NCBI GenBank assembly: GCA_964291285.2
Contig: OZ219786.1
Location: forward strand, 160,001-224,000
Direction: 5' to 3'
DNA length: 64,000 nucleotides
Origin: Alphaproteobacteria bacterium
GTDB taxonomy: Bacteria > Pseudomonadota > Alphaproteobacteria > Bin95
Every line of letters starts with the position of its first letter. Positions within the stretch are counted from its first letter, which is position 1. Position numbers and translations under genes: made by a program. The notes beneath the pieces are model-generated. The model was not told the origin of the DNA. It worked only from the letters and a program-made list of their open reading frames with translations, and did not search any database. Below are positions 3 to 16,319 of this stretch, in pieces.

Positions 3-683
3 GACCGGCTGGATGAAATCGGCGCCGTCGCCCGCGCCCATGACATCTTCCTCCATGTCGATGCCGCATGGGCCGGCAGCGCGCTCATCTGCGAGGAGCA
101 CCGCTGGATGCTGCAGGGCATCGAGGCCGTGGACAGCCTCGTCTTCAATCCGCACAAATGGCTGCTCACCAATTTCGACTGCTCGGCGCATTTCGTTCGC
201 GATCCGGACGCGCTGATCCGCACCTTTTCGATCCTCCCCGCCTATCTGCAAAGCCGGGAGGGGGATGCCGTCATTGACTACCGCGACTGGAGCGTGCCGC
301 TCGGCCGGCGTTTCCGCGCGCTCAAGCTCTGGTTCGTGCTGCGCAGCTACGGCCTTGCCGGCCTGCGCGACCTGGTGCGGCGGCATATCGCGCTGGCCGA
401 ATGGCTCGAAGGCGAGATCGCAGCGCATCCGGATTTCGAGCTTATGGCCCCCAGATCCTTGGCATTGCTGAATTTCCGCTACGCCCCTCAGGGGAACGCA
501 GCGCTTGACGACCTCAACGAGCGGCTGCTGCACGTGATCAATGACGAAGGGCGCATCTACCTGACGCAAGGCAGCGTGAACGGGGCCTATGCGATTCGCG
601 TCTCCATCGGACAGACCGGCACCGAGCGCATCCATGTCGAGCAGGCGTGGGAGGCAATCCGCTCCGCCGCCGCCCGACTTTAG
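3..683 (+). CDS. PLP-dependent (group II) aromatic-L-amino-acid decarboxylase family protein, 5' end outside window
   Basis: Frame is open from base 3 with HVDAAWAG, the PLP-lysine motif FNPHKWL and DYRDWSVPLGRRFRALKLW. Confidence 0.9.
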   Translation, partial: DRLDEIGAVARAHDIFLHVDAAWAGSALICEEHRWMLQGIEAVDSLVFNPHKWLLTNFDCSAHFVRDPDALIRTFSILPAYLQSREGDAVIDYRDWSVPLGRRFRALKLWFVLRSYGLAGLRDLVRRHIALAEWLEGEIAAHPDFELMAPRSLALLNFRYAPQGNAALDDLNERLLHVINDEGRIYLTQGSVNGAYAIRVSIGQTGTERIHVEQAWEAIRSAAARL

Positions 684-689
684 GCATTG

Positions 690-1185
690 CCGGCAGGATG
701 CTTCAAATATGAAAAAAATCTAATTAATCTGATTTTTGTTTCATATTTGATCTTGACATCTGGCGGATTGTGGTATGATGGTCCCCAAGGAAGCGGAATC
801 CGGAGCCGCGTCCCCGGGTGCCGCGCGGCCGAGCGGCGCCGGTTTCTGAAAACCCGTGAGAAGCCGACGGGAGACGTGCGTCCTGCGTCTCGCGCGCGCA
901 ATCAGGCGCGCGAACCGCGCCGGCGCCGACACGCGCACAGGCGCCCGCGCAGGATACGCGCGGAAAAGGGACCCGCTCCCCGTCGGAGCAAGGAGGAACG
1001 ATGAAGGCAACCCACCCTCGCCCCGGTCATGTCGAACCGCTGCCCCTTTTTCTCCTCGCACCCGGCAGGAGGTCAAAAAGCGGAGAGCCTTATGCCCGAA
1101 CCGGCTACAGAACATACGCCCCGCGCATGGGAAACATGACAGATCATGACATCCCATGACATACCGCGCGGGGTCTGCGCCGGCG
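690..1185 (+). repeat. Dispersed ~500-bp non-coding element, copy 1
   Basis: Shares identical 20-bp (894-913) and 23-bp (940-962) blocks, a TTGACA and terminal CATGAC repeats with the reverse complement of 17340-17875. Ends approximate. Confidence 0.8.
753..779 (+). promoter_or_regulatory. Putative sigma70-type promoter
   Basis: TTGACA at 753-758 and TGgTATGAT (extended -10) at 771-779. The 15-bp spacer is short. Preceded by an AT-rich inverted repeat at 703-750. Confidence 0.5.
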
Positions 1186-1190
1186 GGAGC

Positions 1191-1415
1191 CTATCCGGCT
1201 CTGGCGATCACGAACCGATAGGGCGCGTCCGCCTCCTGGGCTTCAACGATGTCATGGCCTTCCGTGGCGCAGAAATGGCGCATGTCGATGGGCGAGGCCG
1301 GGTCGTCGGTCAGCACCTCCAGCCGGTCGCCCGGCGCCATCGCCCTGAGGCGCTTGCGGGCCCGCAGGACCGGAATCGGACAGCGCAGGCCCGTGGCGTC
1401 GAGCAGGTCGGCCAT
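1191..1415 (-). CDS. tusA: TusA/SirA family sulfur carrier
   Basis: 74 aa; LDATGLRCPIP (CPxP) motif and DDP..PIDM. Confidence 0.9.
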   Translation of the reverse strand: MADLLDATGLRCPIPVLRARKRLRAMAPGDRLEVLTDDPASPIDMRHFCATEGHDIVEAQEADAPYRFVIARAG

Positions 1416-1418
1416 GGG

Positions 1419-2285
1419 TCAGAAGGCGTTGAGCGGGATCTTGAGATAGGCGCGGCCGTTGCTTTCCGGCTCCGGCAGGTCGCCGCCGCGCATGTTCACC
1501 TGGATCGAAGGCAGCAGCAGCGCCGGCACATCCAGCACCTTGTCCCGCTCGGTGCGCATGGCGACGAAGGCCTGCTCGTCGATGCCGTCGCGCACATGCC
1601 GGTTCGCCCTGCGCTCCTCTTCCACCGTCGTCTCCCACGCGACCTCCCGTCCGCCCGGCGCGTAGTCGTGCCCGACGAAGACGCGCGTTTCGGGCGGCAG
1701 CGACAGGATGCGGCGCGCCGAGCGGTAGAGCGCCGCCGCGTCGCCGCCGGGAAAGTCGCAGCGCGCGGTGCCGAAATCCGGCATGAAGACGGTGTCGCCC
1801 GTGAACGCGGCATCGCCGATGACATAGGTGACGCAGGCAGGCGTGTGGCCCGGCGTGTGCAGCACCCGCGCCGGCACCCGCCCCAGCCGGAACTGCTCCT
1901 CGTCGTCGAACAGCCGGTCGAACTGAGAGCCGTCGGTCAGGAATTCCGGCGGCAGATTGTAGATGTCCTTGAAGACCGCCTGCACATCGACGATGTGGCC
2001 GCCGATGGCCGTCCTGCCTCCGAGCGCCTGCTTCAGGAAGGCGCCGGCGCTCAGATGGTCGGCATGCACATGGGTTTCGAGGATCCACTCAACGCTGAGG
2101 CCGCGCTCGCGAACCCGCGCGACAAGCCGCTCGGCGAACGCCGTTTCGGTCCGTCCGGAGTAGATGTCGTAGTCGAGCACCGGATCGACGACGGCGGCCC
2201 GGCCGGTCCCGGGGCAGGCCACGATATAGCTCACCGTGGAGCTCGGCTCGTGAAACAGCGCCTCAACCAGCGGTCGTTCGGCCAT
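1419..2285 (-). CDS. MBL-fold persulfide dioxygenase (ETHE1/Blh-like)
   Basis: ETHVHADHLS, HTPGHTPAC, GDTVFMPDFGTARCDFPGG, C-terminal YLKIPLN. Confidence 0.88.
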   Translation of the reverse strand: MAERPLVEALFHEPSSTVSYIVACPGTGRAAVVDPVLDYDIYSGRTETAFAERLVARVRERGLSVEWILETHVHADHLSAGAFLKQALGGRTAIGGHIVDVQAVFKDIYNLPPEFLTDGSQFDRLFDDEEQFRLGRVPARVLHTPGHTPACVTYVIGDAAFTGDTVFMPDFGTARCDFPGGDAAALYRSARRILSLPPETRVFVGHDYAPGGREVAWETTVEEERRANRHVRDGIDEQAFVAMRTERDKVLDVPALLLPSIQVNMRGGDLPEPESNGRAYLKIPLNAF

Positions 2286-2349
2286 GAGTCGCCCTCCCTC
2301 GCGGGGAAACGCTATCCTATACCGGATTCACAAACGGGAGAACGCATCC

Positions 2350-3102
2350 GTGAACGCGCCGCTGATCGACTACCACTCCGAGGACGGTATCGCAACGATT
2401 ACCCTCAACCGGCCCGACAAGATGAATGCCCTGTCGAACGGGCTCGTCGCCGAGCTGATCCAGGCCTTCGAGCGCCTGCAGGACAGCGATGACCGCGTCG
2501 CGATCCTGACCGGCGCGGGCGAGCGCGCCTTCTCGGTCGGCGCAGACCTGCGCGACCCGCCCCGCGACCCGGAGCTCTGGGAGTGCATGCCGGGCGTCGG
2601 CGTGATGGTGGACAAGCCGATCATCGCCGCCGTGCACGGCTACTGCGTGGGCGGCGCCTTCTGCCTGGTGGAGTTCTGCGACCTTGCCGTGGCCGACGAA
2701 ACCGCGGACTTCTTCTATCCCGAGGCGCAGATCGGGTTCTGCGGCGGGCTCATCGCCGGCCTCGCGGCGCGCATACCGCACAAGCTCGCGATGGAGTTCA
2801 TGATGACCGGAAAGCATTTCGACGGCGAACGCGCCGCCGAGATCGGCATGGTCAACCGTGCCGTGCCGCGGGGCGAGCTGATGGCCGCGGCAAGGGACTA
2901 CGCGACCATCCTCAGGGACAGCGCGCCGCTCGTGCTGCGAACGGTCAAGCGTTTCGTGCGCGATACCGTGGTCGCGCGCGGCCCCTCGGAACTCCAGGCG
3001 CTGGCCCGGCGGGAGTTGCTCTCGATCAGCCGCAGCGAGGACCAGAAGGAAGGCGGGCGGGCGTTCCGCGAGAAGCGCAAGCCCATGTTCACCGGCCGAT
3101 GA
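2350..3102 (+). CDS. Enoyl-CoA hydratase/isomerase
   Basis: ITLNRPDKMNAL, AFSVGADL, KPIIAAVHGYCVGG, EKRKPMFTGR; GTG start after GGAG. Confidence 0.9.
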   Translation: MNAPLIDYHSEDGIATITLNRPDKMNALSNGLVAELIQAFERLQDSDDRVAILTGAGERAFSVGADLRDPPRDPELWECMPGVGVMVDKPIIAAVHGYCVGGAFCLVEFCDLAVADETADFFYPEAQIGFCGGLIAGLAARIPHKLAMEFMMTGKHFDGERAAEIGMVNRAVPRGELMAAARDYATILRDSAPLVLRTVKRFVRDTVVARGPSELQALARRELLSISRSEDQKEGGRAFREKRKPMFTGR

Positions 3103-3887
3103 GCGCGGAAATCGTCTTCGAGGTCCGGGACAGGGTCGGCCTCATCCGCCTCAACCGGCCGGAAAAGCTCAACGCCTTCACCAACTCCATGCTCGAAGAC
3201 TGGCTGGAGGCGCTGGACGAGGCGGAAGCCCGCGAGGATGTGCGCTGCCTCGTCATCACCGGCACGGGGCGCGGCTTCACCACCGGCGGCGATGTCTCGA
3301 CGATGGGAGGCGGGCAGGACAACAGCCCGAAGACCACGAAGGACCGCATCTGGGAGACGATCCAGGCGGTGCCGAAGCGGCTCGCCGGCATGGACACGCC
3401 AACGATCGCCGCCGTCAACGGCGTCGCCACGGGCGGCGGAGTGGATGTCGCGCTCGCCTGCGACATAAGGGTCTGCGCCGCCTCGGCGCGTTTTGCCGAG
3501 ACCTATGCCCGGCTGGGCCTCATTCCCGGCGCGGGCGGGGCCTATTTCCTGCCCCGCGCCGTGGGCGTGGCCCGCGCGCTGGAGCTGCTCTGGACAGCGG
3601 AGTTCATCGACGCGGAGACGGCCGAGCGCATCGGGCTCGTGAACCATGTCTATCCGGACGAGAGCTTCCTCGACGACGCGATGGCGCTTGCCGGGCGCAT
3701 CGTTGCCGCCGCGCCGCTCTCGGTGCGCTACATCAAGCGGACGGTCTATCGCTCGCTCGCCACCGACATGCTCACCAGCTTCGACCTCGTGTCCTCGCAC
3801 ATGACAGTCGTGCGCTCGTCCGAGGACCATGTCGAGGCCGTCGCGGCTTTCCGCGAGAAACGCACGCCCGACTTCAAGGGCCGTTGA
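3099..3887 (+). CDS. Enoyl-CoA hydratase/isomerase
   Basis: LNRPEKLNA, GFTTGGD, AAVNGVATGGG, EKRTPDFKGR; ATGA overlap with the upstream gene. Confidence 0.9.
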   Translation: MSAEIVFEVRDRVGLIRLNRPEKLNAFTNSMLEDWLEALDEAEAREDVRCLVITGTGRGFTTGGDVSTMGGGQDNSPKTTKDRIWETIQAVPKRLAGMDTPTIAAVNGVATGGGVDVALACDIRVCAASARFAETYARLGLIPGAGGAYFLPRAVGVARALELLWTAEFIDAETAERIGLVNHVYPDESFLDDAMALAGRIVAAAPLSVRYIKRTVYRSLATDMLTSFDLVSSHMTVVRSSEDHVEAVAAFREKRTPDFKGR

Positions 3888-3919
3888 CATCCCCTGCCCC
3901 GCCTGCGGCCGCACCGGAA

Positions 3920-3955
3920 CATGACACTTCATGACATCCCATGACACTTCATGAC
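3920..3955 (+). repeat. Four CATGAC units at exact 10-bp spacing
   Basis: CATGAC starts at 3920, 3930, 3940 and 3950; the same motif ends both copies of the dispersed element. Confidence 0.9.
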
Positions 3956-4033
3956 GCTCCTGCCCTTCCGGCGTTCTCCGGCGCGGGGCATATTGGCCGC
4001 TCCGATTGCCGCTTCCATCAGGAGACCTGAACC

Positions 4034-4741
4034 TTGCCCAAGTTAACCGAACAGGACCTTGCGGCGCTGCGCGCGCTCAACACGCCCACGATCTGCAACG
4101 CGCTGGAGGTCGTGGCCGGCAGCCGGCTGAACACCGGCTTCACCGTCGAGCCGCTGGTCTGCCCCTTCCCGGACCTACCGCCTATCGTCGGCTATGCGCG
4201 CACCGGCACCATACGCTCACAATTCCCGAGCGCCGTGGGCGGCAACGATGCCGCGAAGCTGCGCGTTTCCTACTACGACTATGTCGCCCATGGCGGCCCC
4301 GCGCCGCAGATCGTGGTGCTGCAGGACCTCGACGGCCCGCGCGCCGGCTTCGGCGCCTTCTGGGGCGAGGTGAACTCCAACATCCACAAGGCGCTCGGCT
4401 GCCTCGGCGTCGTCACGGACGGCTGCATCCGGGACATTCCGGACTGGGCGGACGGCTTCCAGGCCGTGGCCGGCTCGATCAAGCCCGCGCACGCCCATGT
4501 GCATGTGGTCGATTTCGGCGGACAGATCAGCGTCGCCGGCATGGTCGTCAACAGCGGCGACCTCGTGCATGCCGACCAGCACGGCGCGGCGGTCATTCCC
4601 ATCGACCAGGCGCGCGAGGTGCCGAAGGCGGCGGCCGAGGTAGCGGCCAAGGAAAAGGTCGTGCTGGACGTCTGCCGCGGCTCCGGTTTCACCTTCGAGA
4701 AGCTGAAACGCGCCATGCTCGGCCCCGAAGACGTGCACTGA
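4034..4741 (+). CDS. RraA-like / HMG aldolase family protein
   Basis: TPTICNALE, AFWGEVN, GVVTDGCIRD, GDLVHADQHGAAVIP; TTG start after GGAG. Confidence 0.85.
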   Translation: MPKLTEQDLAALRALNTPTICNALEVVAGSRLNTGFTVEPLVCPFPDLPPIVGYARTGTIRSQFPSAVGGNDAAKLRVSYYDYVAHGGPAPQIVVLQDLDGPRAGFGAFWGEVNSNIHKALGCLGVVTDGCIRDIPDWADGFQAVAGSIKPAHAHVHVVDFGGQISVAGMVVNSGDLVHADQHGAAVIPIDQAREVPKAAAEVAAKEKVVLDVCRGSGFTFEKLKRAMLGPEDVH

Positions 4742-4753
4742 CACTTCTGCGCC

Positions 4754-5272
4754 ATGCGTCTCCCCCTCCTGCCGCTGGCCGCGATGGCCGGGCTGGTCGC
4801 GCTCTCCAACGTGCTCGTCCAGTATCCGATCAATGACTGGCTGACCTGGGGCGCGTTCACCTATCCGGTCTGCTTCCTGGTCACGGACCTCACCAACCGG
4901 ATGCACGGCGCGGCGACGGCGCGGCGGGTCGTCTATGTCGGCTTCGCCGCGGCCGTCGTGCTGTCCATCGTTTTGGCGACGCCGCGAATCGCGGTCGCCT
5001 CGGGCCTGGCCTTCCTGGTCGCCCAGCTTCTGGACGTGACGGTGTTCGACCGGATGCGGCAGCGGGCATGGTGGCAGGCGCCGCTGGTCTCCTCGATGCT
5101 CGGCTCGGCCGTCGATACGGCGCTGTTCTTCTCGATCGCCTTCTACGGCACCGGGATTCCCTGGGTCACGCTCGGGATCGGGGACTTCCTCTGGAAGGTC
5201 GCCTTCGCGCTCGCCATGCTGATTCCGTTCCGGCTGCTGATGCCGGCGACGGCCGGGCGGGCCGCTCAGTAG
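4754..5272 (+). CDS. VUT family (YhhQ-like) queuosine-precursor transporter
   Basis: Hydrophobic; SNVLVQ, TWGAFTYP..FLVTDL, QLLDV.VF, DTALFFSIAF. Confidence 0.8.
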   Translation: MRLPLLPLAAMAGLVALSNVLVQYPINDWLTWGAFTYPVCFLVTDLTNRMHGAATARRVVYVGFAAAVVLSIVLATPRIAVASGLAFLVAQLLDVTVFDRMRQRAWWQAPLVSSMLGSAVDTALFFSIAFYGTGIPWVTLGIGDFLWKVAFALAMLIPFRLLMPATAGRAAQ

Positions 5273-6024
5273 TGGGAGACGCCGCCCTCCGCCGGGATCA
5301 CCGCGCCATTGACCATGCGGGACTCGTCCGACGCCAGGAAGAGCCCGATATTGGCGATGTCCTCCGGCGGACCGATGCTGAACGGATAGCTCTCGAAGAT
5401 CGCGAACGGCCCCTCCTGCCGGCGTTCCCCGTCCGGCCCCGGATAGCGCGCAAGGATGCGTTCGGTCAGGATGAGTCCGGGGCAGATGACATTGGCCCGC
5501 ACGCCCTCGTCGGAATAGGAGCCGGCGAGCGAGCGGGTGAAGGAGATCAGCCCGCCCTTCGCCGCGGAATAGACATGGCTGGGAACGAAACCGCGCAAAG
5601 CTGCGACGGAGGAGATGTTGATGACGGCCCCGCCGCCGCCCGCGATCATGTGGGGCACGACATGGCGGCACATCAGCATCGGGCCCTTGAGGTCGAGCGG
5701 GATCGTGCGGTCCCAGACGGCGAGATCGACCTCGTGGATCTTCGAGTCCTCGGGAACCGAGCCGCCCGCGCAGTTGAACAGGATGTCGATACGCCCGAAC
5801 TCGGCCATCGCCGCCGCCGCGCAGGCCGCTGCAGAAGCGTCATCGGTCACATCGGTGCGGTGGAAGACGGCGCCGTTCTCGGCTGCCGTTGCGGACCCGG
5901 CCGCTTCGTTGATTTCCGCCACCATCACCTTCGCGCCCTCGCGAATGAAAATGCCCGTGGCCGCCCTGGCGATTCCGGTTCCAGCCCCGGTAATCACCGC
6001 GGTCTTGCCTTCGAGCCGTCCCAT
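5266..6024 (-). CDS. SDR family oxidoreductase (paralog B)
   Basis: TGAGTGIA, NCAG, YSAAK catalytic motif. Confidence 0.92.
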   Translation of the reverse strand: MGRLEGKTAVITGAGTGIARAATGIFIREGAKVMVAEINEAAGSATAAENGAVFHRTDVTDDASAAACAAAAMAEFGRIDILFNCAGGSVPEDSKIHEVDLAVWDRTIPLDLKGPMLMCRHVVPHMIAGGGGAVINISSVAALRGFVPSHVYSAAKGGLISFTRSLAGSYSDEGVRANVICPGLILTERILARYPGPDGERRQEGPFAIFESYPFSIGPPEDIANIGLFLASDESRMVNGAVIPAEGGVSHY

Positions 6025-6054
6025 ATCCTGCACTCCTCTCCTTGCCGCCGCCCG

Positions 6055-6813
6055 TCAATAGGCGGAGATGCCGCCTTCTCCCGGGATGACCGCGCCGTTC
6101 ACCATGCGCGACTCGTCCGACGCCAGGAAGAGCGCGATATTGGCGATGTCCTCGGGCTGGCCGACGCCGAACGGATATTGTTCGAAGGTGCCGATCGAGC
6201 CTTCGCGCGGGCGCTCCTCGTTCGGCTGTCGGTAGCGGGCGCGGACGCGCTCGGTCAGGATGAGCCCCGGACAGATCACGTTGGCGCGCACGCCCCGGTC
6301 CGAATAGGAGCCGGCCAGCGAGCGCGTGAAGGAGATCAGCCCGCCCTTCGCCGCCGAATAGATATGCGCCGGATGGTTGCCGCGCAGCGCCACGACGGAA
6401 GAGACGTTGACGACGGCGCCGCCGCCGCCCGCGATCATGTGCGGCACGACATGGCGGCACATCAGCATCGGGCCCTTGAGATCGAGCGGGATCGTGCGGT
6501 CCCAGACACCGAGATCGACATCATGGATCGCCGTGTCCTCGATCACCGACCCACCGGCGCAGTTGAACAGAATGTCTATGCGACCGAACTCGGCCATCGC
6601 CGCCGCCGCGCAGGCGGCCGCCGAGGCATCGTCAGTCACGTCGGTGCGGTGGAAGGCGGCGCCCGTCTCCGCCGCCGCAGCAGCGCCCGCCGCCTCGTCG
6701 ATCTCCGCCACCATCACCTTCGCGCCTTCGCGGATGAAGATTCCGGTGGCTGCCCTGGCGATCCCGGATCCGGCGCCGGTAATGATCGCAGTCTTGCCTT
6801 CCAGGCGTCCCAT
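6055..6813 (-). CDS. SDR family oxidoreductase (paralog A)
   Basis: TGAGSGIA, YSAAK; near-identical to the adjacent SDR. Confidence 0.92.
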   Translation of the reverse strand: MGRLEGKTAIITGAGSGIARAATGIFIREGAKVMVAEIDEAAGAAAAAETGAAFHRTDVTDDASAAACAAAAMAEFGRIDILFNCAGGSVIEDTAIHDVDLGVWDRTIPLDLKGPMLMCRHVVPHMIAGGGGAVVNVSSVVALRGNHPAHIYSAAKGGLISFTRSLAGSYSDRGVRANVICPGLILTERVRARYRQPNEERPREGSIGTFEQYPFGVGQPEDIANIALFLASDESRMVNGAVIPGEGGISAY

Positions 6814-6853
6814 CTCTTGCTTTCCTCCCGATCCGGGCGCTAGGGTCGCGCCC

Positions 6854-8500
6854 ATGGCACAAGAGCTTATCAACCCCTGCGGCATCTACCAGCGCAATAG
6901 CGGCGCGCTGGCGCCGCGGCGATCCCTGGAAGACGTTAAGACCGTCGGCCTGTTCTCCAATCTCAAGGCGAATGCAGACCTTTACCTGGAAGAGGTGTCG
7001 CACCGGTTGAAGGCGCGCTACCCGCATCTGGAGTTCGAACTCTTCCAGAAGATTGCGAGCGAGCCCGCAAATTTCTCCCAGCCCTGGCTTGACCGGGTCC
7101 ACGCCGTGGCCGCCGCTTTCGGGGACTGAGGTTCCTGCACGTCGTGGTGTATCCATGACGCGATCAAGCTTGAAGAACGCGGCATTCCCGTGGCCGTCAC
7201 CTGCACCGACGAGTTCTTTGCCCTTGGAAAAGCGGAAGCCGAATGCCTCGGCATGGCGGGCCTGCCGATTGCGGTCGTCCCGCATCCGGTGGCGAAACTG
7301 CCTCCGGTCGGTGTGGCGGAAATCGCCGATGAGGCGATAGACCAGATCGTCCACATGCTGGAAGCAGACGCGGCGGCACTCGCGGAGGAATGCCGCAACC
7401 GTCCCCTGCCGAAGCGCGGCCGGATGCGCTACCGCTCGCTGTTCGAGGGCGACTTCAACGCGCCCGGCGCGCCGGAGCGGATTTCAGGTCCTGACTCGCC
7501 GGAGGCGCTGAACCGCGTCTTCTACCAGCGCGGCTGGACTGACGGCCTGCCTTTCGTTCCGCCGACGCCCGACCGCTGGGAGGCGATGCTGGGCGGACGC
7601 GATCCCGATGAGGAAATCGGGTTCATCGAACCGCGCCTCGGCCTCGCGACGGTCGGCAAGGTCGCCGCCAATGCCGTTATGGCCGGGGCGACGCCCGCCA
7701 TGATGCCGGTCGTCCTTGCCGCGACGCGTGCGATGACCGCCGAGCGGCTGAACCTGAAGGCGCTCCAGTCCACGACCCACCCCTGCGGCCTGCTGACCGT
7801 CGTGCATGGTCCGATGGCGGAAGACCTAGATATCGCCTCCGGCACGAACTGCATGGGCCAGGGCGCCCACGCCAATGCCGCGATCGGGCGCGCCGTCCGG
7901 CTCGTACTCACCAATATCGGCGGCGCCCAGCCCGGCGTGCTCGACCGCGCGACGATGGGCACGCCCGCCAAATACAGCTACTGCTTCGCGGAGAACGGCG
8001 AGGCCAATCCCTGGGCGCCTTTCCAGGCCGAGCGGGGCTTCGGCGCGGAGGAAAACGCAGTCACGGTCTGCGGCGTCGAGGGCCCACACAATGTCAACGA
8101 TCACTACAGCGAAACGGCCGAAGACGTTCTGCTGACGATCTGCGGCACCATGGCGACGCCGGGCTGCAACAACTCCTATTTCCACGGCGAATATCTCGTG
8201 GTGATCGGCCCGGAACACGCCGAGGTGATCGCGCGCGAGGGCTGGTCGAAGGAAGATGTCGAGCGCTTCATCATCGAGCGCGCGATCATTCCGCGCTGGC
8301 ATGTCGGCAAGGCGCAGATGGCGCTCTACCGCCAGCAGGTGCCGGAGCGGTTCGTCGGCCCGGACGGCAGGGACGGCGTGCGCATCGTCAGCGAGCGGGA
8401 GCAACTCATGGTCATGGTCGCCGGCGGGGCGGGACGCCACTCCTGCGTCATCCCGTCCTTCGGCAGTACGCTCTCCGTAACCGAGGCGATCCGGGACTAG
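6854..8500 (+). CDS. UGSC-family selenoprotein fused to a GWTDGLP-type C-terminal domain; Sec at TGA 7127-7129
   Basis: ORFs ending at 7129 and starting at 7190 are in one frame. Read-through gives AFGD-U-GSCTSWCIHD. Hairpin at 7140-7160. Confidence 0.82.
7140..7160 (+). promoter_or_regulatory. Putative bacterial SECIS hairpin
   Basis: CGUCGUGG-UGUAU-CCAUGACG; 8-bp stem, loop begins 18 nt after the UGA and has G then U. Confidence 0.7.
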
Positions 8501-8504
8501 CCGG

Positions 8505-9485
8505 TCATCCTCTCAGGTCGGCGAGGAGCGGCATGACGTCGCCGGCGAAGCGTTCGATCTGCTCCGAACGCCGGTCGTAAGGACCGACAAGATCGACAAC
8601 GATGTGCCTTGCGCCTGCCCGGTGGAAGTCGCGGATTCGCCCGGCAACCTGCTTGCTGGTGCCGAGCGCAGCGTAGCGCGCCGCCGCCTTGCGGAAGTCC
8701 ATCGCATAGCGGAGGGACAGCGACTCGGTAGCGGTGTCGAGGGCGCGCTCATAGTTGTCGTCGATGCGGGTGAACAGCAGGTGACCGGTGCCGAACGGCA
8801 CATCGCCGCGCCCCGCCGCCTCGGCCGCCTGCCCTATCTCGCCCAGGGCCTGCGCGAACATATCCGGCGTCACGACATATGAGACATAGCCATTCGCGAG
8901 CCTGCCCGCGCGCCGCAGTGCCGGCGAACGCCGTCCGCCGCACCAGATCGGCGGGCCGCCCGATTGCCTGGGCGGCGGCAGCATCGGCACATCCTCGAAG
9001 GAGAAATGGCGCCCGCAATAGCTTGCCGGCCTTCCTGACCAAAGCGCGCGGACCGCCTCGATACTCTCGGTCAGCCGGCGGCCCCGTTCCTCCCGGGACA
9101 CGCCGCATACCTCGTATTCCTTCGGGAACTCGCCCCCGACGCCGACGCCGAAGATGAAACGCCCTTCGCTCAGATGGTCGAGCGTGGCCGTCATCTTTGC
9201 CACCGGCCCCGGATGGCGCAGCGGCAGCAGATAGACGCCTGTGCCGAAGACCAGCCGCCGGCTCGCTACCGCCGCCTGCGCGATCATCAGCAGAGGATCG
9301 AGGAACGGAATGGCGAAGGAAACATGGTCGCCCAGCCAGATTTCGTCGAAGCCCTTTCTGTCCACATCCTCGACAAAGGCCACGAGGTCGTCGATGCGCG
9401 GAAGCCAGGGGCCGGTTTCGAAATCCCCCTGGCGATGGATCGTCTGGATACCGAGTTTCAGTCCCTCTTCAAGCCGGAGCGCCAT
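8505..9485 (-). CDS. LLM-class flavin-dependent oxidoreductase
   Basis: GFDEIWLGDH, LPLRHP, ATLDHLSEGRFIFGVGVG, PPIWCGG. Confidence 0.9.
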   Translation of the reverse strand: MALRLEEGLKLGIQTIHRQGDFETGPWLPRIDDLVAFVEDVDRKGFDEIWLGDHVSFAIPFLDPLLMIAQAAVASRRLVFGTGVYLLPLRHPGPVAKMTATLDHLSEGRFIFGVGVGGEFPKEYEVCGVSREERGRRLTESIEAVRALWSGRPASYCGRHFSFEDVPMLPPPRQSGGPPIWCGGRRSPALRRAGRLANGYVSYVVTPDMFAQALGEIGQAAEAAGRGDVPFGTGHLLFTRIDDNYERALDTATESLSLRYAMDFRKAAARYAALGTSKQVAGRIRDFHRAGARHIVVDLVGPYDRRSEQIERFAGDVMPLLADLRG

Positions 9486-9551
9486 GCGCCTCCCTCCCCG
9501 CGGCTGGCGTTTTGCGGTATAGAGCGTCATCCGCAGGGGAGACGCAATGCG

Positions 9552-10874
9552 ATGAGCGCCTTTGCATCGCTCGTGGACGACCGCGCCGGCGACGGCGTCT
9601 TCAGGGTGGACCGGGCCGTCTATACAGACCCGGAGGTTTTTGCCGCCGAGATCGAGACGATCTTCGAGGGCAACTGGATCTATCTGGCGCATGAGAGCCA
9701 GATTGCGGCGCCCGGCGACTACCTCGCCGTGTGGATGGGCCGCCAGCCGGTGATCGTCAACCGGCGAGCCGACGGCTCCGTCGGCGCCATGCTGAACGCC
9801 TGCGCCCATCGCGGCGCGCGCCTGACGCCCACCCGGCAGGGCAAGGCGACGACGTTCGTGTGCCGCTATCACGGCTGGTGCTACGACACGTTCGGCGCCT
9901 GCACGAAGATCAAGGACGAGCGCACCTCCGCACTGCCGCCCGGCTCGTCGCGTGCGGATTTCGGCCTCAAGACGGTGCCTTTGGTCGAGAGCTACAAGGG
10001 CTTCATCTTCGGCTCGCTCAACCCCGACGCGCCGCCGCTCGCCGAGCATCTGGGCGAGGCGCTTCCGGTCATCGACCTGCTCGCGGACCAGTCGCCCGAC
10101 GGCATGGAGGTCGTTCCGGGACAGGCAAGCTACGTCGTGGACGGAAACTGGAAGCTCCAGACCGAAAACGGCGTCGACGGCTACCACGTCTCCACCGTGC
10201 ACCGGAACTTCGTCACCACCATTCAGCGCCGCGACCTGCAATCAGGCGCGACCGGCGCCGGGCGGACGGACAACAGCCGCTTCATGGGCGCGACCCGCAA
10301 CGGCTGCTACGACCTCGGCAATGGCCACAACCTGATCTGGACCGAGCGCGGGATGCCGGAATCGGCGCCGCTCTGGGAAGCGCGCGAGCGCCTGCTGCCG
10401 CTTGTCGGCGAGCGCAGATGGACCTGGATGTGTGCGCGGGGGCGCAACCTGCTGCTCTTCCCGAACGTCTTCCTCATGGACCAGTCGTCAACCCAGATCC
10501 GCGTCATCCGCCCGATTTCGCCGAGCCGCACGGAAGTCACGGTCCATTGTATCGCGCCGAAGGGCGAGAGCCGCGCCGCCCGTGCGGCAAGATTGTCGAA
10601 GTTCCGCGACTTCTTCCTGATGAGCGGGCTCGCGACTCCGGACGATTCGGCGGCTCTGGAGGACACCCAGGCCGGATGCGAGGGCCGGCTCGACCGCTGG
10701 AACGACCTGTCGCGGGGCATTGCCGCCATGCAGCATGGCGGCGACGACGCTGCCTCCGATCTCGGCATACAGCCGGTTTCGACCAGCCCGCGTTGGGACC
10801 ACGAAACGCTTTACCACGGGCAATACCGCCAGTGGCGCCGCCTCATGGCGCGCGCCGACAGGGCTGCCGCGTGA
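9552..10874 (+). CDS. Rieske ring-hydroxylating oxygenase alpha subunit (benzoate/anthranilate-like)
   Basis: NACAHRG...CRYHGW Rieske ligands; NWKLQTENGVDGYHVSTVH iron site. Confidence 0.92.
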   Translation: MSAFASLVDDRAGDGVFRVDRAVYTDPEVFAAEIETIFEGNWIYLAHESQIAAPGDYLAVWMGRQPVIVNRRADGSVGAMLNACAHRGARLTPTRQGKATTFVCRYHGWCYDTFGACTKIKDERTSALPPGSSRADFGLKTVPLVESYKGFIFGSLNPDAPPLAEHLGEALPVIDLLADQSPDGMEVVPGQASYVVDGNWKLQTENGVDGYHVSTVHRNFVTTIQRRDLQSGATGAGRTDNSRFMGATRNGCYDLGNGHNLIWTERGMPESAPLWEARERLLPLVGERRWTWMCARGRNLLLFPNVFLMDQSSTQIRVIRPISPSRTEVTVHCIAPKGESRAARAARLSKFRDFFLMSGLATPDDSAALEDTQAGCEGRLDRWNDLSRGIAAMQHGGDDAASDLGIQPVSTSPRWDHETLYHGQYRQWRRLMARADRAAA

Positions 10875-11371
10875 AGATCGACCCGGACCTGCAGCTTGCC
10901 ATCGAGCGCGTAATCCATCTCGACGCATGGCTCCTGGACGAACGACGCTTCGAGGAATGGCTGGCGCTGTTCACCGAGGATGTGGCCTTCTGGGTGCCCG
11001 CCTGGACCGGCGAGGAAACGCTTGCCCGCGATCCGGAGACCGAACTCGCGCTTATCTACATCCAGGGCAAGGCAGGCCTCGACGACCGGGTGTTCCGCAT
11101 CGGCACGCGCGACAGTTACGCCTCCCTGCCCCTGCCGCGCTCATGCCATGTGGTCGGCAATGTGCTGATCCTTTCCGCCGGCGACAGCGAAGTCGAGGCC
11201 GTCGCGTCCTGGACGGTGCATCAATATGCCTCGCTCAAGGGCGCGCGCGTGCATGGGGGGCGTTACCGCTACCGGCTCCGCCTCGAGGACGGCGAATGGC
11301 GGATCGCCGCCAAGACCGTGATTTTCCTGAACGATGGAGTCGATGTGGCTCTGGATATCTACAATGTCTGA
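10871..11371 (+). CDS. Ring-hydroxylating oxygenase beta subunit
   Basis: LLDERRFEEWLALF, LDDRVFRI, C-terminal LDIYNV; GTGA overlap. Confidence 0.9.
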   Translation: MKIDPDLQLAIERVIHLDAWLLDERRFEEWLALFTEDVAFWVPAWTGEETLARDPETELALIYIQGKAGLDDRVFRIGTRDSYASLPLPRSCHVVGNVLILSAGDSEVEAVASWTVHQYASLKGARVHGGRYRYRLRLEDGEWRIAAKTVIFLNDGVDVALDIYNV

Positions 11372-11936
11372 ACCGAACGCATCGCCGAAGGGCCTTCGCT
11401 TTGCGGTGGACTACGGCCCGCTGCTGGTCTTCTTCGTCACTTACTACGCAGCCGGCATCATGTGGGCTACGGCGGCGATCATGGCGGCGACATCCGTCAT
11501 GCTGGCCGTCTCCTGGTATTTCGAACGGCGCCTGGCGCCCCTGCCGCTGGTGACGGCGGGGCTGGTCGCGGTGTTCGGCGGGCTGACCCTGCTGCTCGCG
11601 GACGAGACCTTCATCAAGATGAAGCCGACCATCGTGAAGGCGTTCATCGCCGCCGTGCTGCTCGGCGGCCTCGCCTTTGGAAAGCCGCTGCTGAAGCCGC
11701 TGTTCGGCGCGGTCTGGAAGATCGATGACGACGGATGGCGCAAGCTGACCTTGCGTTTCGGGCTGTTCTTCATTGCCATGGCGCTGCTGAACGAGATCGT
11801 CTGGCGCACGCAGTCCACGGATTTCTGGGTCAACTACAAGCTGTTCGGCACGATCGGCCTCACATTCGCCTTCTCCCTGACTCAGATACCGGTATTCCGG
11901 CGTCACTGGGTCGAGGAACCCGCGGAGAGCGGCTAG
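11364..11936 (+). CDS. ispZ: Inner membrane protein YciB/IspZ
   Basis: DYGPLLVFF, FGGLTL, TFIKMKPTI, LNEIVWR, WVNYKLFG. Confidence 0.9.
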   Translation: MSEPNASPKGLRFAVDYGPLLVFFVTYYAAGIMWATAAIMAATSVMLAVSWYFERRLAPLPLVTAGLVAVFGGLTLLLADETFIKMKPTIVKAFIAAVLLGGLAFGKPLLKPLFGAVWKIDDDGWRKLTLRFGLFFIAMALLNEIVWRTQSTDFWVNYKLFGTIGLTFAFSLTQIPVFRRHWVEEPAESG

Positions 11937-11947
11937 CCGTCCCGATT

Positions 11948-13279
11948 TCAGGCGGCCCTCTGTGCTGTCTCAAGTAAATCGTTAACAACACGCTCTAAAT
12001 GATTGAATGTGTTGCATTCACGCAGGAGGTCACAATAGGGCCGGTAGCGGCGCATCTCGCTGTCTCCCGTACCCCAGAGCGGCGGCGGCTCCGGGTTGAG
12101 CCAGATGAGCCGCTTGCAGCGTTCGTGCATTTCCTTCAGGTATTCGGCCTTCGGATCGGTGTTGTTCGACCGCGCGTCGCCGAGAATGATGATCGTGGTG
12201 TTCCGGTCCACGTCGGCCAGGAAGCTCTCGCGGAAATTGGTGAGCGATTCGCCGTAGTCCGTCGGCATGTAGCCGACCTTCTGCATCACCTTGTCGGCAG
12301 CCTCGTCCGCCACGTTGTCCTTGAAGTGCTCGGAGACTTCGATGAGGTAGCCGGAAAAGGCGAAGCTGCGAATGTCGTGCAGGAGTTCGTGCAACTCATA
12401 GAGGAATTGCAACAGGAACCGCGCGACGCTCGCCACGGAGCCGCTGACATCGCAGATCGCCATGACGCGCGGGCGGTCGAGCTTGCGCTTCTTCCACTCC
12501 AGCTCGAACAGCACGCCGTCATTGCCGTAATTGCGGCGCATGGTGCGGCGGATGTCCAGCTGGCCCCGGTTCTTCATCTTGCGCCGCCGGGAATGGAGCG
12601 CCACCAGCCGGCGGCAGATCTTCTCCACGATGCGGCGCATCTGCTCGCGGTCGCGGCGGTCCAGATTGCCGAGCCGGGAACGCCGCAGCCGGTCCTCGCG
12701 AAGCTCCTGCGAAGTCGCCGCGCCCTGGAGCGAAAGCTGTTGCTCGACATAGTTGCGCACCTGCTCGAACAGCCAGGCCCGGCTTTCCTGGAGGGCCTGC
12801 CCGGCGCTGCCGCCGCCGCCCTGCCCGCCCATTGCCTGGATCTGCGCATCCACGCCCTCGACGCCCATCTGCTGGAGCACGCGCTGGGTATAGAGGCCGC
12901 GCTGGGTGAAGAAGCGGATGTTCTCGACGCCGACCTCCACTGCCGCCTCCTGCATGGCGAGCGCAAGCGCGGCGCGGTCGCCGGCTTCCAGCATGGCCAG
13001 CAGGTCTCCGCCGTCCGCCTGCCCGTTCTCCTCCGTCTCCTCCCCGTCCCGGCGGTCGTGGAAGCTTTCGAAGGCGAAAAATTCGTCGAAGATACGGGTG
13101 AAGCCGGTCTTTTCCTCGGGCGTCTTGGCCAGCGCCATGGCGAGGGCGTCGTGCAGGCTTTGCCGGTCCGACCAGCCCATCAGCCGCGCCGTTTCCATTG
13201 CATCCAGCGTCTCGGCAACCGAAACGCGGATATCGGCCCCGCGCAGAGCGGACAGGAAATTGGTGAAGGTGCGTTCCAT
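11948..13279 (-). CDS. VWA-domain CoxE-like protein
   Basis: LDIRRTMRRN, MIDAS motif DVSGS, ILGDARSN, WLNPEP. Confidence 0.88.
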   Translation of the reverse strand: MERTFTNFLSALRGADIRVSVAETLDAMETARLMGWSDRQSLHDALAMALAKTPEEKTGFTRIFDEFFAFESFHDRRDGEETEENGQADGGDLLAMLEAGDRAALALAMQEAAVEVGVENIRFFTQRGLYTQRVLQQMGVEGVDAQIQAMGGQGGGGSAGQALQESRAWLFEQVRNYVEQQLSLQGAATSQELREDRLRRSRLGNLDRRDREQMRRIVEKICRRLVALHSRRRKMKNRGQLDIRRTMRRNYGNDGVLFELEWKKRKLDRPRVMAICDVSGSVASVARFLLQFLYELHELLHDIRSFAFSGYLIEVSEHFKDNVADEAADKVMQKVGYMPTDYGESLTNFRESFLADVDRNTTIIILGDARSNNTDPKAEYLKEMHERCKRLIWLNPEPPPLWGTGDSEMRRYRPYCDLLRECNTFNHLERVVNDLLETAQRAA

Positions 13280-14235
13280 CAGGCGCGCGCGCCGTCAGCC
13301 TTCTTCGCCTGGCGGGTGAACCCGTAGAGTTCCGCATCGACCGACTGGATGTCCTCCTCGAATTTGAGGAAGACATTGAGCGTTTCCCGAACCATGTCCG
13401 CTTCGAGTTCGTCGGCATGCAGCAGCAGCAGCACGCGCGCCCAGTCGATGGATTCGCTGACCGAGGGCTGCTTCTTCAGGTCCAGATCGCGTACCTGCTG
13501 CACGAAGGAAACGAGCTGGTACTTCAGGTTGCGGGGAATCTCCGGAATGCGGGCCTGGATGATCTCCCGTTCGAGCGGCGCATCGGGAAACGGCACATAG
13601 AGATGCAGGCAGCGCCGCTTGAGCGCGTCGCTCATCTCGCGGGTGTTGTTGGAGGTCAGGAACACCACCGGACGCCGTCCGGCCTTGATCGTCCCGAGTT
13701 CCGGGATCGAGACCTGGAATTCGGACAGGATTTCCAGAAGGAAAGCCTCGAACTCGTGGTCCGACTTGTCCACCTCGTCGATCAGCAGCACCGCGCCGCC
13801 GGGTTCCCGCAGCGCCTTGAGCAAGGGCCGCGGCGCAAGGAAGCGCTCGGAGAAGAACACATCCGCATGGGCATGCAGCCGGTCCATCGATTCCTTGAGC
13901 CCCTGGGCCTCGCCCAGCACCTCGCCCAGCTTGTCCCGCAGGATTTGCGTGTAGAGGAGCTGCTTGGCGTAGCGCCACTCGTAGAGCGCCTTGGCCTCGT
14001 CCAGGCCTTCGTAGCATTGCAGCCGGATGAGCGGCAGGTCGAGATAGGCGGCCGTCGTGTTCGCAAGCTCTGTCTTGCCGACGCCGGCGGGACCCTCGAC
14101 GAGAACCGGCTTGCCCAGATGCCCGGCCACATAGATCGCCGTTGCAATCTGGCGCGAACAGATATAGCCGAGTTCCGCATAGCCTTCGCGGACGCGCTCG
14201 ATGGACTCCAGCTTTTCCAGTTGTTCAGGGGTCAT
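13279..14235 (-). CDS. MoxR-family AAA+ ATPase (CoxD-like)
   Basis: EGPAGVGKT, RLQCYEGLD, LLIDEVDK, SDALKRRCLH. Confidence 0.92.
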   Translation of the reverse strand: MTPEQLEKLESIERVREGYAELGYICSRQIATAIYVAGHLGKPVLVEGPAGVGKTELANTTAAYLDLPLIRLQCYEGLDEAKALYEWRYAKQLLYTQILRDKLGEVLGEAQGLKESMDRLHAHADVFFSERFLAPRPLLKALREPGGAVLLIDEVDKSDHEFEAFLLEILSEFQVSIPELGTIKAGRRPVVFLTSNNTREMSDALKRRCLHLYVPFPDAPLEREIIQARIPEIPRNLKYQLVSFVQQVRDLDLKKQPSVSESIDWARVLLLLHADELEADMVRETLNVFLKFEEDIQSVDAELYGFTRQAKKADGARA

Positions 14236-14360
14236 ATCTTGTCCGGGGAATAGAGAGCGCCGGATATTGCCCGCTGCTTCCGGGCGACACAACCGAACCG
14301 GGTCGTGCGAAACCGCCGCATGAGCCTCCTCCATCCCCGCTCTGCACAGCGTCGATTTCA

Positions 14361-15233
14361 ATGAGGCCCGACCGGCCGGGGCGCGGCATTGCGTTGATGA
14401 TCGTGGCGATGGCAATGCTGGCGGGCCTCGACGCGGTCGGCAAGCTCGCGACCCAGACCTACCCCGTCTCGCAGGTGCTGTTCCTGCGGTTCGCCATGTT
14501 TCTCGCGTTTGCGCTGGCGCTTGCAGCCCGGCGCGGCGGTGTCGGTGCCATGCTGCGGACGCGGAACTGGCGCCTTCAACTGTTTCGGTCCTTCGTGCTG
14601 GCGTTCGAGATGTGGCTGTTCGTCTATGCGATCTCGAAGCTGCCGCTTGCGGACGTCCATGCGGTGGCAGCAGCCTCGCCGCTCATTGCCACCGCCCTCG
14701 CCGTTCCCCTGCTGGGCGAGCGCGTGGGCCCCTGGAGGTGGGCCGCGGTAATGCTGGGATTTGCCGGCACGCTGGTCGTCATTCGACCGGGCGTCGGCGT
14801 CTTCGACCCCCTGACCCTTCTGCCGCTCGTCGCTGCGTTCGGCTGGGCCTATTACCAGCTTCTGCTGCGCCGCCTGCGCGAAGACCGGCCCGAGACGACC
14901 CTGCTCTACACGGCCGTCATCGGGTTCGCCGTCTGGAGCGCGTCGGTTCCCTTCACCTGGGAGCCTCCCGACGCTTACGGATGGACGCTTCTCGGCGCGG
15001 TCGGGGTGCTCGGAATTGTCACGCACAGCCTGCTGATTCTGGCAGCGAGAGAGGCGCCGGCGGCCGTTTTGCAGCCGTTCAACTACACCCTGCTCGTCTG
15101 GGCGACGCTTTGGGGATGGGTCGGTTTCGGCGCCTTCCCCGATTCCTGGACGATCATCGGCGCCGCGGTGGTGGTCTCGAGCGGGCTCTTCGCCATCTGG
15201 CGCGAACACCGTCAGGTTCTGCACCGTCGGTAG
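14361..15233 (+). CDS. DMT/EamA family transporter
   Basis: About ten hydrophobic segments; LLGERVG..RW, QPFNY. Confidence 0.88.
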   Translation: MRPDRPGRGIALMIVAMAMLAGLDAVGKLATQTYPVSQVLFLRFAMFLAFALALAARRGGVGAMLRTRNWRLQLFRSFVLAFEMWLFVYAISKLPLADVHAVAAASPLIATALAVPLLGERVGPWRWAAVMLGFAGTLVVIRPGVGVFDPLTLLPLVAAFGWAYYQLLLRRLREDRPETTLLYTAVIGFAVWSASVPFTWEPPDAYGWTLLGAVGVLGIVTHSLLILAAREAPAAVLQPFNYTLLVWATLWGWVGFGAFPDSWTIIGAAVVVSSGLFAIWREHRQVLHRR

Positions 15234-15305
15234 CAGGTTGTCACTCCGGCCGCGCCGGGCATTTCGTGCATAATGCCGGCAACGCAAATCGGGGGATTGC
15301 TTTCC

Positions 15306-16316
15306 ATGCAGTTCGTTCTGGCGATCCGGGGCCAGTTTCCGCCCGGGGACGATATGAGTGCGCGCTTCGAAGAGCTGATGGAGCAGGTCCGCCTGGCGAA
15401 ACGGCTGGGCTTCACGGGCATCGCCAAGTCCTGCCACTACAGCTCCTCGCCCTGGCAGGAAATCCAGCAGATTCCCTTCCTCGCCCGCGCGGCGGCGGAA
15501 GCGCCGGGCCTCACCTTCATCACCTCCATCGTGCTGCTGCCCCTGCACAAGCCGCTGGAGATCGCCGAGCAGACGGCGGCGCTCGACCTGTTCACCGGCG
15601 GGCGCTTCATCCTCGGCGTCGGCATCGGCTACCGCGATGTCGAGTTCAAGGCCTTCGGCACCACCCGCCGGGAGCGGGTGCCGCGCATGGTCGAGAATAT
15701 CCAGGCGATCAGGCGCTTGTGGACCGAAGACGAGGTGACGATGAAGGGCTCGCATTTCGAGCTCGACGGCGCGGTCTGCTCGCTCAGGCCGCGGCGTCCG
15801 CCGCCCATCTGGATCGGCGCCAATGCCGACCCGGCAATCCGCCGCGCAGCGCATATCGCCGACAGCTGGATGATCAACCCGCACAACCGCATCGACACGA
15901 TCCTGCGCCAGATCGAGGTTTACAAGCAGGGCCTCGACGAAGCGGGCAAGCCCTGGCCGGAAACCCTGCCGCTGGCGCGGGAGATGTTCGTGGCCCGCAC
16001 CCGCGCCGAGGCGATCCGGCTGGCCCGGCCCTATCTGGAAGCCAAATACAAGGCGTATCACGACTGGGGCCAGGACAAGGCGATGCCCGAGGGCGACAAC
16101 GATCTCGGCCAGGAGTTCGACGAACTCGCCCGCGACCGCTTCCTCTTCGGCTCCGCCGACGAGGTGGCCGAACAGATCGTGGGCATGATGAAGGCGACCG
16201 GCGCCAACCAGCTTTCCCTGCCGATCCAGTGGCCGGGAATGCCCCAGCAACTCGTTCTGGAGCAGATGCATGTGATGGCGGAAGAGGTCGTCCCCCTCGT
16301 GGAGCAGGGACTGTAG
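15306..16316 (+). CDS. LLM-class flavin-dependent oxidoreductase (paralog 1)
   Basis: LLPLHKPLEIAEQ, GGRFILGVGIGYR, PPIWIGAN. Confidence 0.9.
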   Translation: MQFVLAIRGQFPPGDDMSARFEELMEQVRLAKRLGFTGIAKSCHYSSSPWQEIQQIPFLARAAAEAPGLTFITSIVLLPLHKPLEIAEQTAALDLFTGGRFILGVGIGYRDVEFKAFGTTRRERVPRMVENIQAIRRLWTEDEVTMKGSHFELDGAVCSLRPRRPPPIWIGANADPAIRRAAHIADSWMINPHNRIDTILRQIEVYKQGLDEAGKPWPETLPLAREMFVARTRAEAIRLARPYLEAKYKAYHDWGQDKAMPEGDNDLGQEFDELARDRFLFGSADEVAEQIVGMMKATGANQLSLPIQWPGMPQQLVLEQMHVMAEEVVPLVEQGL

Positions 16317-16319
16317 GCC

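Follow-up and report, generated by a model that had tools for sequence, protein, structure and literature searches.

The locus described here raises two questions, namely whether a TGA inside a long reading frame is a stop or a selenocysteine (Sec) codon, and what the protein encoded by that frame might do. The frame lies at 6854..8500 on the plus strand of a 64-kb stretch of alphaproteobacterial DNA (the window), which corresponds to positions 160001-224000 of contig C2 of genome G000 (the host). Positions are those of the window unless a contig is named, and residue numbers follow the 548-residue host protein with the TGA read as U (P0001). We conclude that the in-frame stop almost certainly encodes Sec in a 548-residue protein, in which an N-terminal UGSC domain is fused to a second domain called Unknown_1.

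The in-frame TGA and the selenoprotein gene

The coding sequence runs from ATG 6854 to TAG 8498-8500 and comprises a UGSC domain, a linker and Unknown_1 when the TGA is translated as U. The single in-frame TGA, at 7127..7129 (+), specifies residue 92 of the U-G-S-C motif (FGD-U-GSC, residues 89-95) in the translated context AAAFGD-U-GSCTSWCIHD. A sequence-only reading of this DNA had claimed a TGA at 7127 that gives GD-U-GSC in a frame of 548 codons open to 8500, and both the sequence and the translation agree with it. Residues 5-170 matched the Pfam UGSC family PF24696 (142.3 bits; cut-off 25) and residues 28-169 matched the NCBIfam family NF041046, 'UGSC family (seleno)protein' (127.8 bits; cut-off 125). 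Both matches span the TGA and place it on the Sec/Cys column of the model. The claimed membership in the UGSC selenoprotein family was thereby confirmed, as the domain exceeds both curated cut-offs.

The same reading had named the genes of Sec synthesis and homologues with Cys at the Sec site as the checks on this decoding, and both were found. In the host genome, selA (535 bits) and selB (436 bits) lie side by side, and these two as well as selD (277 bits) scored above their cut-offs. The tRNA-Sec scored 72.5 bits, also above the cut-off, and ARAGORN calls it tRNA-SeC with the anticodon TCA. As a separate observation, the host selD match (G000:C2:1357981-1358862, minus strand) lies within an open frame that spans 747 residues, compared with 311 positions in the model; this frame possibly encodes a fusion comparable to the Ndh-SelD proteins described in PMC2398784. 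With regard to the homologues, P0008 (554 aa) is the sole full-coverage protein among the best 120 database matches to the full protein; it is 55% identical to P0001 and reads ADCGSCTSWC. Among representatives of 528-570 aa, 16 of 17 possess a complete N-terminal UGSC domain. Six sequences of this size were inspected: P0136, P0146, P0220 and P0128 have DCGSC, P0142 has HCGAS, and P0153 carries no UGSC domain.

Comparison with closer relatives showed that the frame is maintained across the TGA. An orthologue with exactly one TGA was present in 14 of the 16 other genomes of the genus, with 88-97% identity over residues 1-548 (two of the 14 align over 1-545 and 1-547); the remaining two genomes, G001 and G014, gave paralogue-level matches only. 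A full-frame orthologue with one TGA and 57% identity was found in another family (G030). The TGA was unchanged in all nine genus orthologues compared, and in these orthologues synonymous changes predominate on both sides of it. For instance, the synonymous and non-synonymous changes relative to the orthologue L023 numbered 24 and 2 in codons 1-91, 30 and 2 in codons 93-190, and 82 and 17 in codons 200-548.

On a broader scale, we scanned a class-wide sample of 401 genomes with the UGSC profile (PF24696) and an Unknown_1 profile. At most eight UGSC and five Unknown_1 candidates were scored per genome, and the match counts from this sample are lower bounds. One TGA was carried by 86 of the 91 UGSC matches and none by the other five. 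Contigs from four metatranscriptome runs were also compared with the gene; parts of the gene were uncovered, and these contigs are uninformative on expression level or on absence of DNA. Two of them extend across the TGA and derive from relatives with an identity of about 92-93%: X19 record 3 (6892-7258, 27 differences) and X20 record 10 (6965-7759, 61 differences). Among the difference rows listed for these two contigs, none falls at 7127-7129.

The sequence-only reading had also pointed to a hairpin after the TGA. A stem-loop resembling a bacterial Sec insertion sequence (bSECIS) is present at 7140..7160 (+), where an 8-bp stem (CGUCGUGG / CCAUGACG; 7140-7147 / 7153-7160) closes an apical UGUAU loop (7148-7152). 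It begins 11 nt after the UGA and has a minimum free energy of -16.3 kcal/mol. We compared it among 28 TGA-bearing UGSC genes, of which six were from the host, 18 from other genomes and four were distant fused or split forms. Of these 28 genes, 22 had a stem of no fewer than 6 bp whose loop, GUU, GUC or UGUAU/UGUAC, begins 18-19 nt downstream of the UGA; the other six showed a different best stem or none. Compensatory pairs were GUGC/GCAU in most genes versus GUGG/CCAU in the host's clade, and CGUGCA/UGCACG in L054 versus CAUGCA/UGCAUG in L055, the latter through two synonymous changes. The distant fused subfamily represented by L036-L038 has another hairpin at a similar distance from the UGA. 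The hairpin gains weight because its position is conserved and its stem shows compensatory changes among relatives.

These results can be set against the possibility that the TGA is a true stop, which would leave a gene for a 91-residue peptide and a separate gene for 436 residues starting at GTG 7190. Conventional annotation agrees with such a division: translation table 11 breaks the frame into open reading frames at 6377..7129 and 7190..8500, 119 of the 120 best database matches to the full protein are called at 366-468 aa (66-81% query coverage) from a start after the TGA, and the NCBI/ENA call for the orthologue in G013 is 415 aa (P0004). P0004 and the other NCBI/ENA members that we looked up carry no protein name. 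A true stop would, however, cut through the UGSC domain model at residues 5-170, and the codons from the TGA to GTG 7190 specify the conserved motif GSCTSWCIHD...ERGIP. Moreover, the Cys homologues are uninterrupted across the site, the codons before and after it are under purifying selection in one and the same frame, and the genome possesses complete Sec machinery. We therefore regard a true stop as extremely improbable. The window gene is a genuine selenoprotein gene mis-called by annotation, cut short by the gene callers, and the public calls begin after the TGA because this Sec codon was taken as a stop. The truncated calls of its relatives, which account for all but one of the best matches, represent a systematic annotation error.

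Pairing and fusion of the two domains

The UGSC domain (residues 5-170; 6866..7363, +) has a Rossmann/flavodoxin-like alpha/beta fold in the predicted structure. It is followed by an interdomain linker (7364..7468, +) and by the partner domain Unknown_1 of some 345 residues (~206-548; 7469..8497, +), which bears the motifs GWTDGLPxVPPT, NAVMAG(A), TTHP, GRAxR, PAKYxxCFAEN and AGGxGRHS. AlphaFold2, run on the full protein with an alignment of 72 rows, gave a mean predicted local distance difference test score (pLDDT) of 90.3 and a predicted template modelling score of 0.90. The pLDDT fell below 50 only at residues 189-198 of the linker, which are predicted to be disordered, and at residues 370-372.

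Across the 401 genomes the two domains were found together. UGSC was present in 44 genomes and Unknown_1 in 43, all of which lie within the 44; in G181, the only genome with UGSC and without Unknown_1, the UGSC match is 335 bases from a contig end. A same-strand Unknown_1 within 2.5 kb accompanied 85 of the 91 UGSC matches, at a distance of up to 215 bp in 82 of these pairs. Unknown_1 came first in 52 pairs and UGSC in 33. Conversely, 99 of the 101 Unknown_1 matches had a UGSC domain within 2.5 kb. Six UGSC matches had no listed partner. For two of them (G000:C2:1239415 and G013:C1:916556) a separate search did find an Unknown_1 partner, those in G181, G217:C121 and G384:C41 are located at the start of a contig, and that in G266:C119 is unexplained. 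The pairing or fusion of UGSC and Unknown_1 is thus near-obligate.

The host genome itself contains six UGSC genes, all with a TGA and each fused to or beside an Unknown_1 paralogue. The five modules other than that of the window occur in both domain orders, at G000:C1:457628-459244, C3:915859-917441, C3:1368332-1369809, C2:1239415-1240967 and C2:1141947-1144797. One host locus is unusual in its architecture (L046, G000:C2:1134000-1153000; 7945-10813, minus strand). Its UGSC frame runs about 465 residues past the TGA into a domain without a family match, a separate Unknown_1 paralogue follows the UGSC gene, and transposase genes of the insertion sequence type are adjacent. In the split form of G035 and G018, the UGSC gene stops in the linker stretch at a real TGA and is followed by an in-frame Unknown_1 gene and then by a shorter second Unknown_1 paralogue. 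The second TGA in these two matches was considered as a second Sec codon and ruled out, being the stop of a separate UGSC gene with the Unknown_1 gene next in the same frame. Reverse-order fusions that are cut at the Sec codon were found in P0139, P0159, P0192 and P0207.

Unknown_1 is a large family in its own right. When the domain alone was searched against 1.84 billion representatives, it matched 4996 proteins at E<=1e-3, of which 3155 reached E<=1e-10 and 1109 reached E<=1e-30. Residues ~206-548 and the host paralogues had no Pfam or NCBIfam match. When 65 diverse members were compared with Pfam one by one at E<=10, no family appeared in more than one member, the pyruvoyl proprotein family included, and NCBIfam returned no family for the members. 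The search for solved relatives was likewise negative. Against the PDB sequences, the best E-values were 0.54 for the UGSC profile, 1.1 for P0001 and 0.13 for the Unknown_1 profile. Foldseek gave template modelling scores (TM) of at most 0.20 for the full model, and for the C-domain model its best match had an E-value of 4e-4 and a TM of 0.20-0.25, in result lists that barely cover the N-terminal half of Unknown_1.

Beyond UGSC, Unknown_1 is fused to an AhpC/TSA domain (P0251), to Pyr_redox_2 (P0131) and to FeThRed_B, the catalytic chain of ferredoxin:thioredoxin reductase (P0215). Two further architectures were observed. A host paralogue with a frame of 602 residues (L045, G000:C2:1231000-1249000; 8925-10730, minus strand) has an N-terminus that is weakly thioredoxin-like (TIGR01068, E 0.008, residues 141-212). 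In P0153 (551 aa), Unknown_1 is preceded by about 200 residues without a Pfam match.

Proposed function and its alternatives

Taking the gene, its relatives and the domain pairing together, we consider it probable that the window holds one 548-residue selenoprotein gene whose two domains constitute a selenol/thiol-dependent oxidoreductase. In this mechanism, the UGA at codon 92 would be decoded as Sec with the aid of the downstream hairpin and of the host SelA, SelB, SelD and tRNA-Sec. The UGSC and Unknown_1 domains would then act as one enzyme, most likely one that reduces a small molecule, in which the Sec92/Cys95 pair would alternate between the selenol/thiol and the selenenylsulfide at or next to the active site of Unknown_1. 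Re-reduction of this pair would be provided by a thioredoxin-type system. A redox role is proposed because U92 and C95 are invariant in 22 aligned UGSC domains and because Unknown_1 is fused to thiol-redox domains. It is also favoured by the thioredoxin-reductase-like genes beside the module in G035 and G018, and by a profile alignment in which the Sec of UGSC meets that of PrdB/GrdB-like proteins. The sequence-only reading had claimed that the fusion makes one redox enzyme. What holds of this claim is that the domains are almost always paired or fused and that Unknown_1 is joined to other thiol-redox modules as well; this comparative evidence strongly favours, and does not prove, a joint role as one redox enzyme.

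The conservation of Unknown_1 is consistent with a catalytic domain. Among 65 sequences, the conserved residues are Asp230 (64), Asn273 (60), Cys279 (59), Asn341 (62), Arg346 (65), Asp364 (58), Lys373 (53), Cys377 (56), Glu380 (64) and His455 (55), where the host residue numbers are combined with the family consensus. The conserved polar residues look like those of an enzyme active site, and Arg346, Lys373, Asp230 and Glu380 point to a ligand that is small and polar.

Several results weigh against this proposal. The hairpin taken by itself is within the range of chance, since its z-score is -1.52 and 17 of 200 shuffled sequences fold as well, while in a scan of stems 10 of 200 shuffles had a stem at least as long. 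The search of 6500-9000 against Rfam at E<=10 gave three chance-level matches (E 3.4-9) and no SECIS family. The best-conserved cysteine of Unknown_1 (VMAG-C; 59 of 65) is Ala279 (7688-7690) in the host protein and in its closest relatives. Pfam searches of 3-17333 returned SDRs (short-chain dehydrogenases/reductases), a luciferase-like (LLM class) oxidoreductase and a Rieske oxygenase, and no thioredoxin-reductase-like gene beside the window copy. The neighbouring genes vary among the six host modules. Furthermore, P0001 matches no model of GrdB or PrdB; at E<=1, NF041046 is its sole NCBIfam match and PF24696 its sole Pfam match. Similarity to these proteins is weak at the profile level also, where hhalign of 22 UGSC domains against 21 PrdB-like proteins gave an E-value of 1.5e-4 with a probability of 51% over 82 columns, and the UGSC profile against a single PrdB-like sequence gave a probability of 13.7%. 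The profile alignment superposes the two Sec positions and also matches the helix and the E-x-x-G-I-P-T strand that come after them. Kinship of UGSC to GrdB/PrdB is accordingly a lead and not a demonstration.

The substitution at position 279 bears on how the two domains could work together. In 121 sequences this position is Cys in 101 and Ala in 14, the latter being the closest relatives of the host protein, and Cys377 is retained in the host protein. Because position 279 is Ala here and in these relatives, a simple dithiol in Unknown_1 that is reduced by UGSC cannot, judged from the alignment, hold in this form.

Two other explanations accept the selenoprotein and differ in what it does. The U-x-x-C(-x-x-C) motif could bind a metal or a cofactor in a non-redox enzyme such as an isomerase, a hydratase or a hydrolase. 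In an alignment of 22 UGSC domains, only P8, U/C92, G93, C95, F121 and G133 are invariant, and the third cysteine of UGSCSSC is displaced in the host protein (W98, C99) and missing in several members. Because this cysteine is shifted or absent, the conservation pattern fits a selenol/thiol pair better than a metal-cluster motif, and we consider the metal or cofactor site unlikely. Alternatively, the selenoprotein could serve in general antioxidant defence or repair, for example as a peroxidase or as a reductase of disulfides or sulfoxides with proteins or oxidants as its targets. According to PMC2398784, the majority of bacterial selenoproteins with a UxxC motif are thiol oxidoreductases of such a kind. 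One relative of Unknown_1 bears an AhpC/TSA domain. The host, however, has six divergent paralogous modules, each amid different catabolic genes, which fits substrate-specific enzymes better than housekeeping defence, and the small polar ligand suggested by the conserved Arg346, Lys373, Asp230 and Glu380 also speaks against a general protective role. Considering both sides, we judge this role to be quite unlikely.

Beyond the selenol/thiol-dependent oxidoreductase that we prefer, a broader proposal can be offered, which we hold tentatively and which may well prove wrong. UGSC and Unknown_1 might together represent an undescribed class of Sec-dependent reductases, in which UGSC would provide the catalytic selenol as distant kin of the Sec-bearing domain of GrdB/PrdB and Unknown_1, a fold without a solved counterpart, would confer substrate specificity. 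The six host modules would then be six catabolic reductases recharged by thioredoxin-type systems. If this were true, the substrate of the window copy could be an intermediate from the neighbouring pathway (a BenA-like dioxygenase and SDRs), and the loss of the conserved Cys279 would mean that Sec92 acts directly in the active site. The window gene holds both halves of the module in one polypeptide and hence in a 1:1 ratio. Because this single polypeptide is encoded in a complete genome with full Sec machinery and five further modules for comparison, it offers a practical starting point for study.

Gene neighbourhood and comparison with known systems

Two SDR genes lie upstream on the minus strand, at 6058..6813 and 5269..6033 (Pfam adh_short_C2, 181.5 and 178.8 bits, respectively), and the start codon of the nearer one is 40 bp from ATG 6854. 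The sequence-only reading had described the selenoprotein gene as divergently transcribed from an SDR pair. Both minus-strand genes were confirmed by Pfam, and any link to them is a matter of adjacency only, as the neighbours differ among the six modules. Downstream, a convergent LLM-class oxidoreductase gene is located at 8508-9500 (-; TIGR03619, 172 bits, cut-off 166.9). It is followed at 9564..10871 (+) by a gene for a BenA-like alpha subunit of a Rieske ring-hydroxylating oxygenase (Pfam Rieske and Ring_hydroxyl_A; TIGR03229, 476.8 bits, below the cut-off of 780.95). In all, three luciferase-like oxidoreductase genes lie within 9 kb of the selenoprotein gene, at 15234-17333 (+) and 8508-9500 (-).

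The surroundings vary among relatives and among the host modules. Genes for Rieske alpha and beta subunits directly follow the selenoprotein gene in G013, which has one divergent SDR gene in the same place. The neighbours in G030 are components of a branched-chain amino acid permease and an alpha/beta hydrolase. The five other host modules are flanked by genes of the enolase superfamily, amidohydrolase, family III CoA-transferase, agmatinase-like, TauD, nitronate monooxygenase, LLM and LysR types. The module of G035 and G018 has a thioredoxin-reductase-like gene at its flank (TIGR01292, 180-201 bits, below the cut-off of 343). A substrate read from the gene context was considered and dropped. 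Because the neighbours differ between modules, the context suggests catabolism in general and no particular substrate.

The window gene joins a family and an architecture that are already known, the fusion of UGSC with Unknown_1 being not new. The UGSC family (NF041046; PF24696; the 'UGSC-containing protein' of Zhang and Gladyshev 2007/2008) shares with the host protein the U-G-S-C motif, a TGA on the Sec column and a downstream hairpin. Sec forms also dominate over Cys forms in both data sets, with 86 of 91 matches carrying a TGA here and 255 Sec compared with 21 Cys forms in the Global Ocean Sampling (GOS) data (PMC2398784). On the other hand, the NCBIfam model has about 147 positions, whereas the host domain forms the first third of 548 residues, and the third cysteine of the host protein is off by one (UGSCTSWC instead of UGSCSSC). 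A thioredoxin fold was proposed for UGSC in that paper (PMC2398784). Later reviews, up to 2026, list the family with its function uncharacterised (PMC9312934, PMC13188914, PMC1976440). In the literature mentioning 'UGSC', the titles other than those on selenium concern unrelated subjects, judged by title.

A 'UGSC/Unknown_1' fusion was pictured in 2008 from GOS reads (PMC2398784, 'Novel domain fusions', Fig. S1A). It has the same domain order as the host protein, and its block AxNxVMAGxxPxxxP...VxGP aligns with host residues 271-320. The block AVNGVMAGCRPEYMP...GNTPG...NG of the figure corresponds to this same region. The two differ in that the GOS fusion has GNTPG where the host protein has TTHP, and the cysteine marked as conserved in PMC2398784 is Ala279 in the host. 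The GOS type corresponds to the subfamily of G020, G022 and G024, whose identity to the host protein is 31-32%.

A second point of comparison is selenoprotein B of the reductases for glycine, sarcosine, betaine and D-proline (GrdB/GrdF/GrdH/PrdB; TIGR01918, PF07355), a member of which may be encoded in the window. A search with PF07355 found a PrdB/GrdB-like gene at 32937-34148 (+), with 403 residues and an in-frame TGA at 33396-33398 (codon 154, VPV-U-PNC). It scored 101 bits with TIGR04483 (PrdB) and 45.8 bits with TIGR01918 (selenoprotein B), both below the cut-offs. At 17 nt downstream of its TGA begins a GC-rich hairpin with the stem GCGCGC / GCGCGC and the loop CGUGU. Homologues of this gene were present in 41 of 301 genomes of the class, mostly with one TGA, and in three copies in the host genome.

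The partner of UGSC sets the two systems apart, since Unknown_1 matches no Pfam model, including that of the pyruvoyl proprotein family. Several features are similar. In selenoprotein B, as in the UGSC domain, a beta-strand of an alpha/beta domain ends in a UxxC selenol/thiol centre, after which come a helix and a strand with the pattern E-x-x-G-I-P/A-T. Selenoprotein B works with a second, substrate-side protein, as UGSC putatively does with Unknown_1. Glycine reductase takes its electrons from the thioredoxin system, and thioredoxin-reductase-like genes and fusions accompany the UGSC/Unknown_1 module elsewhere.

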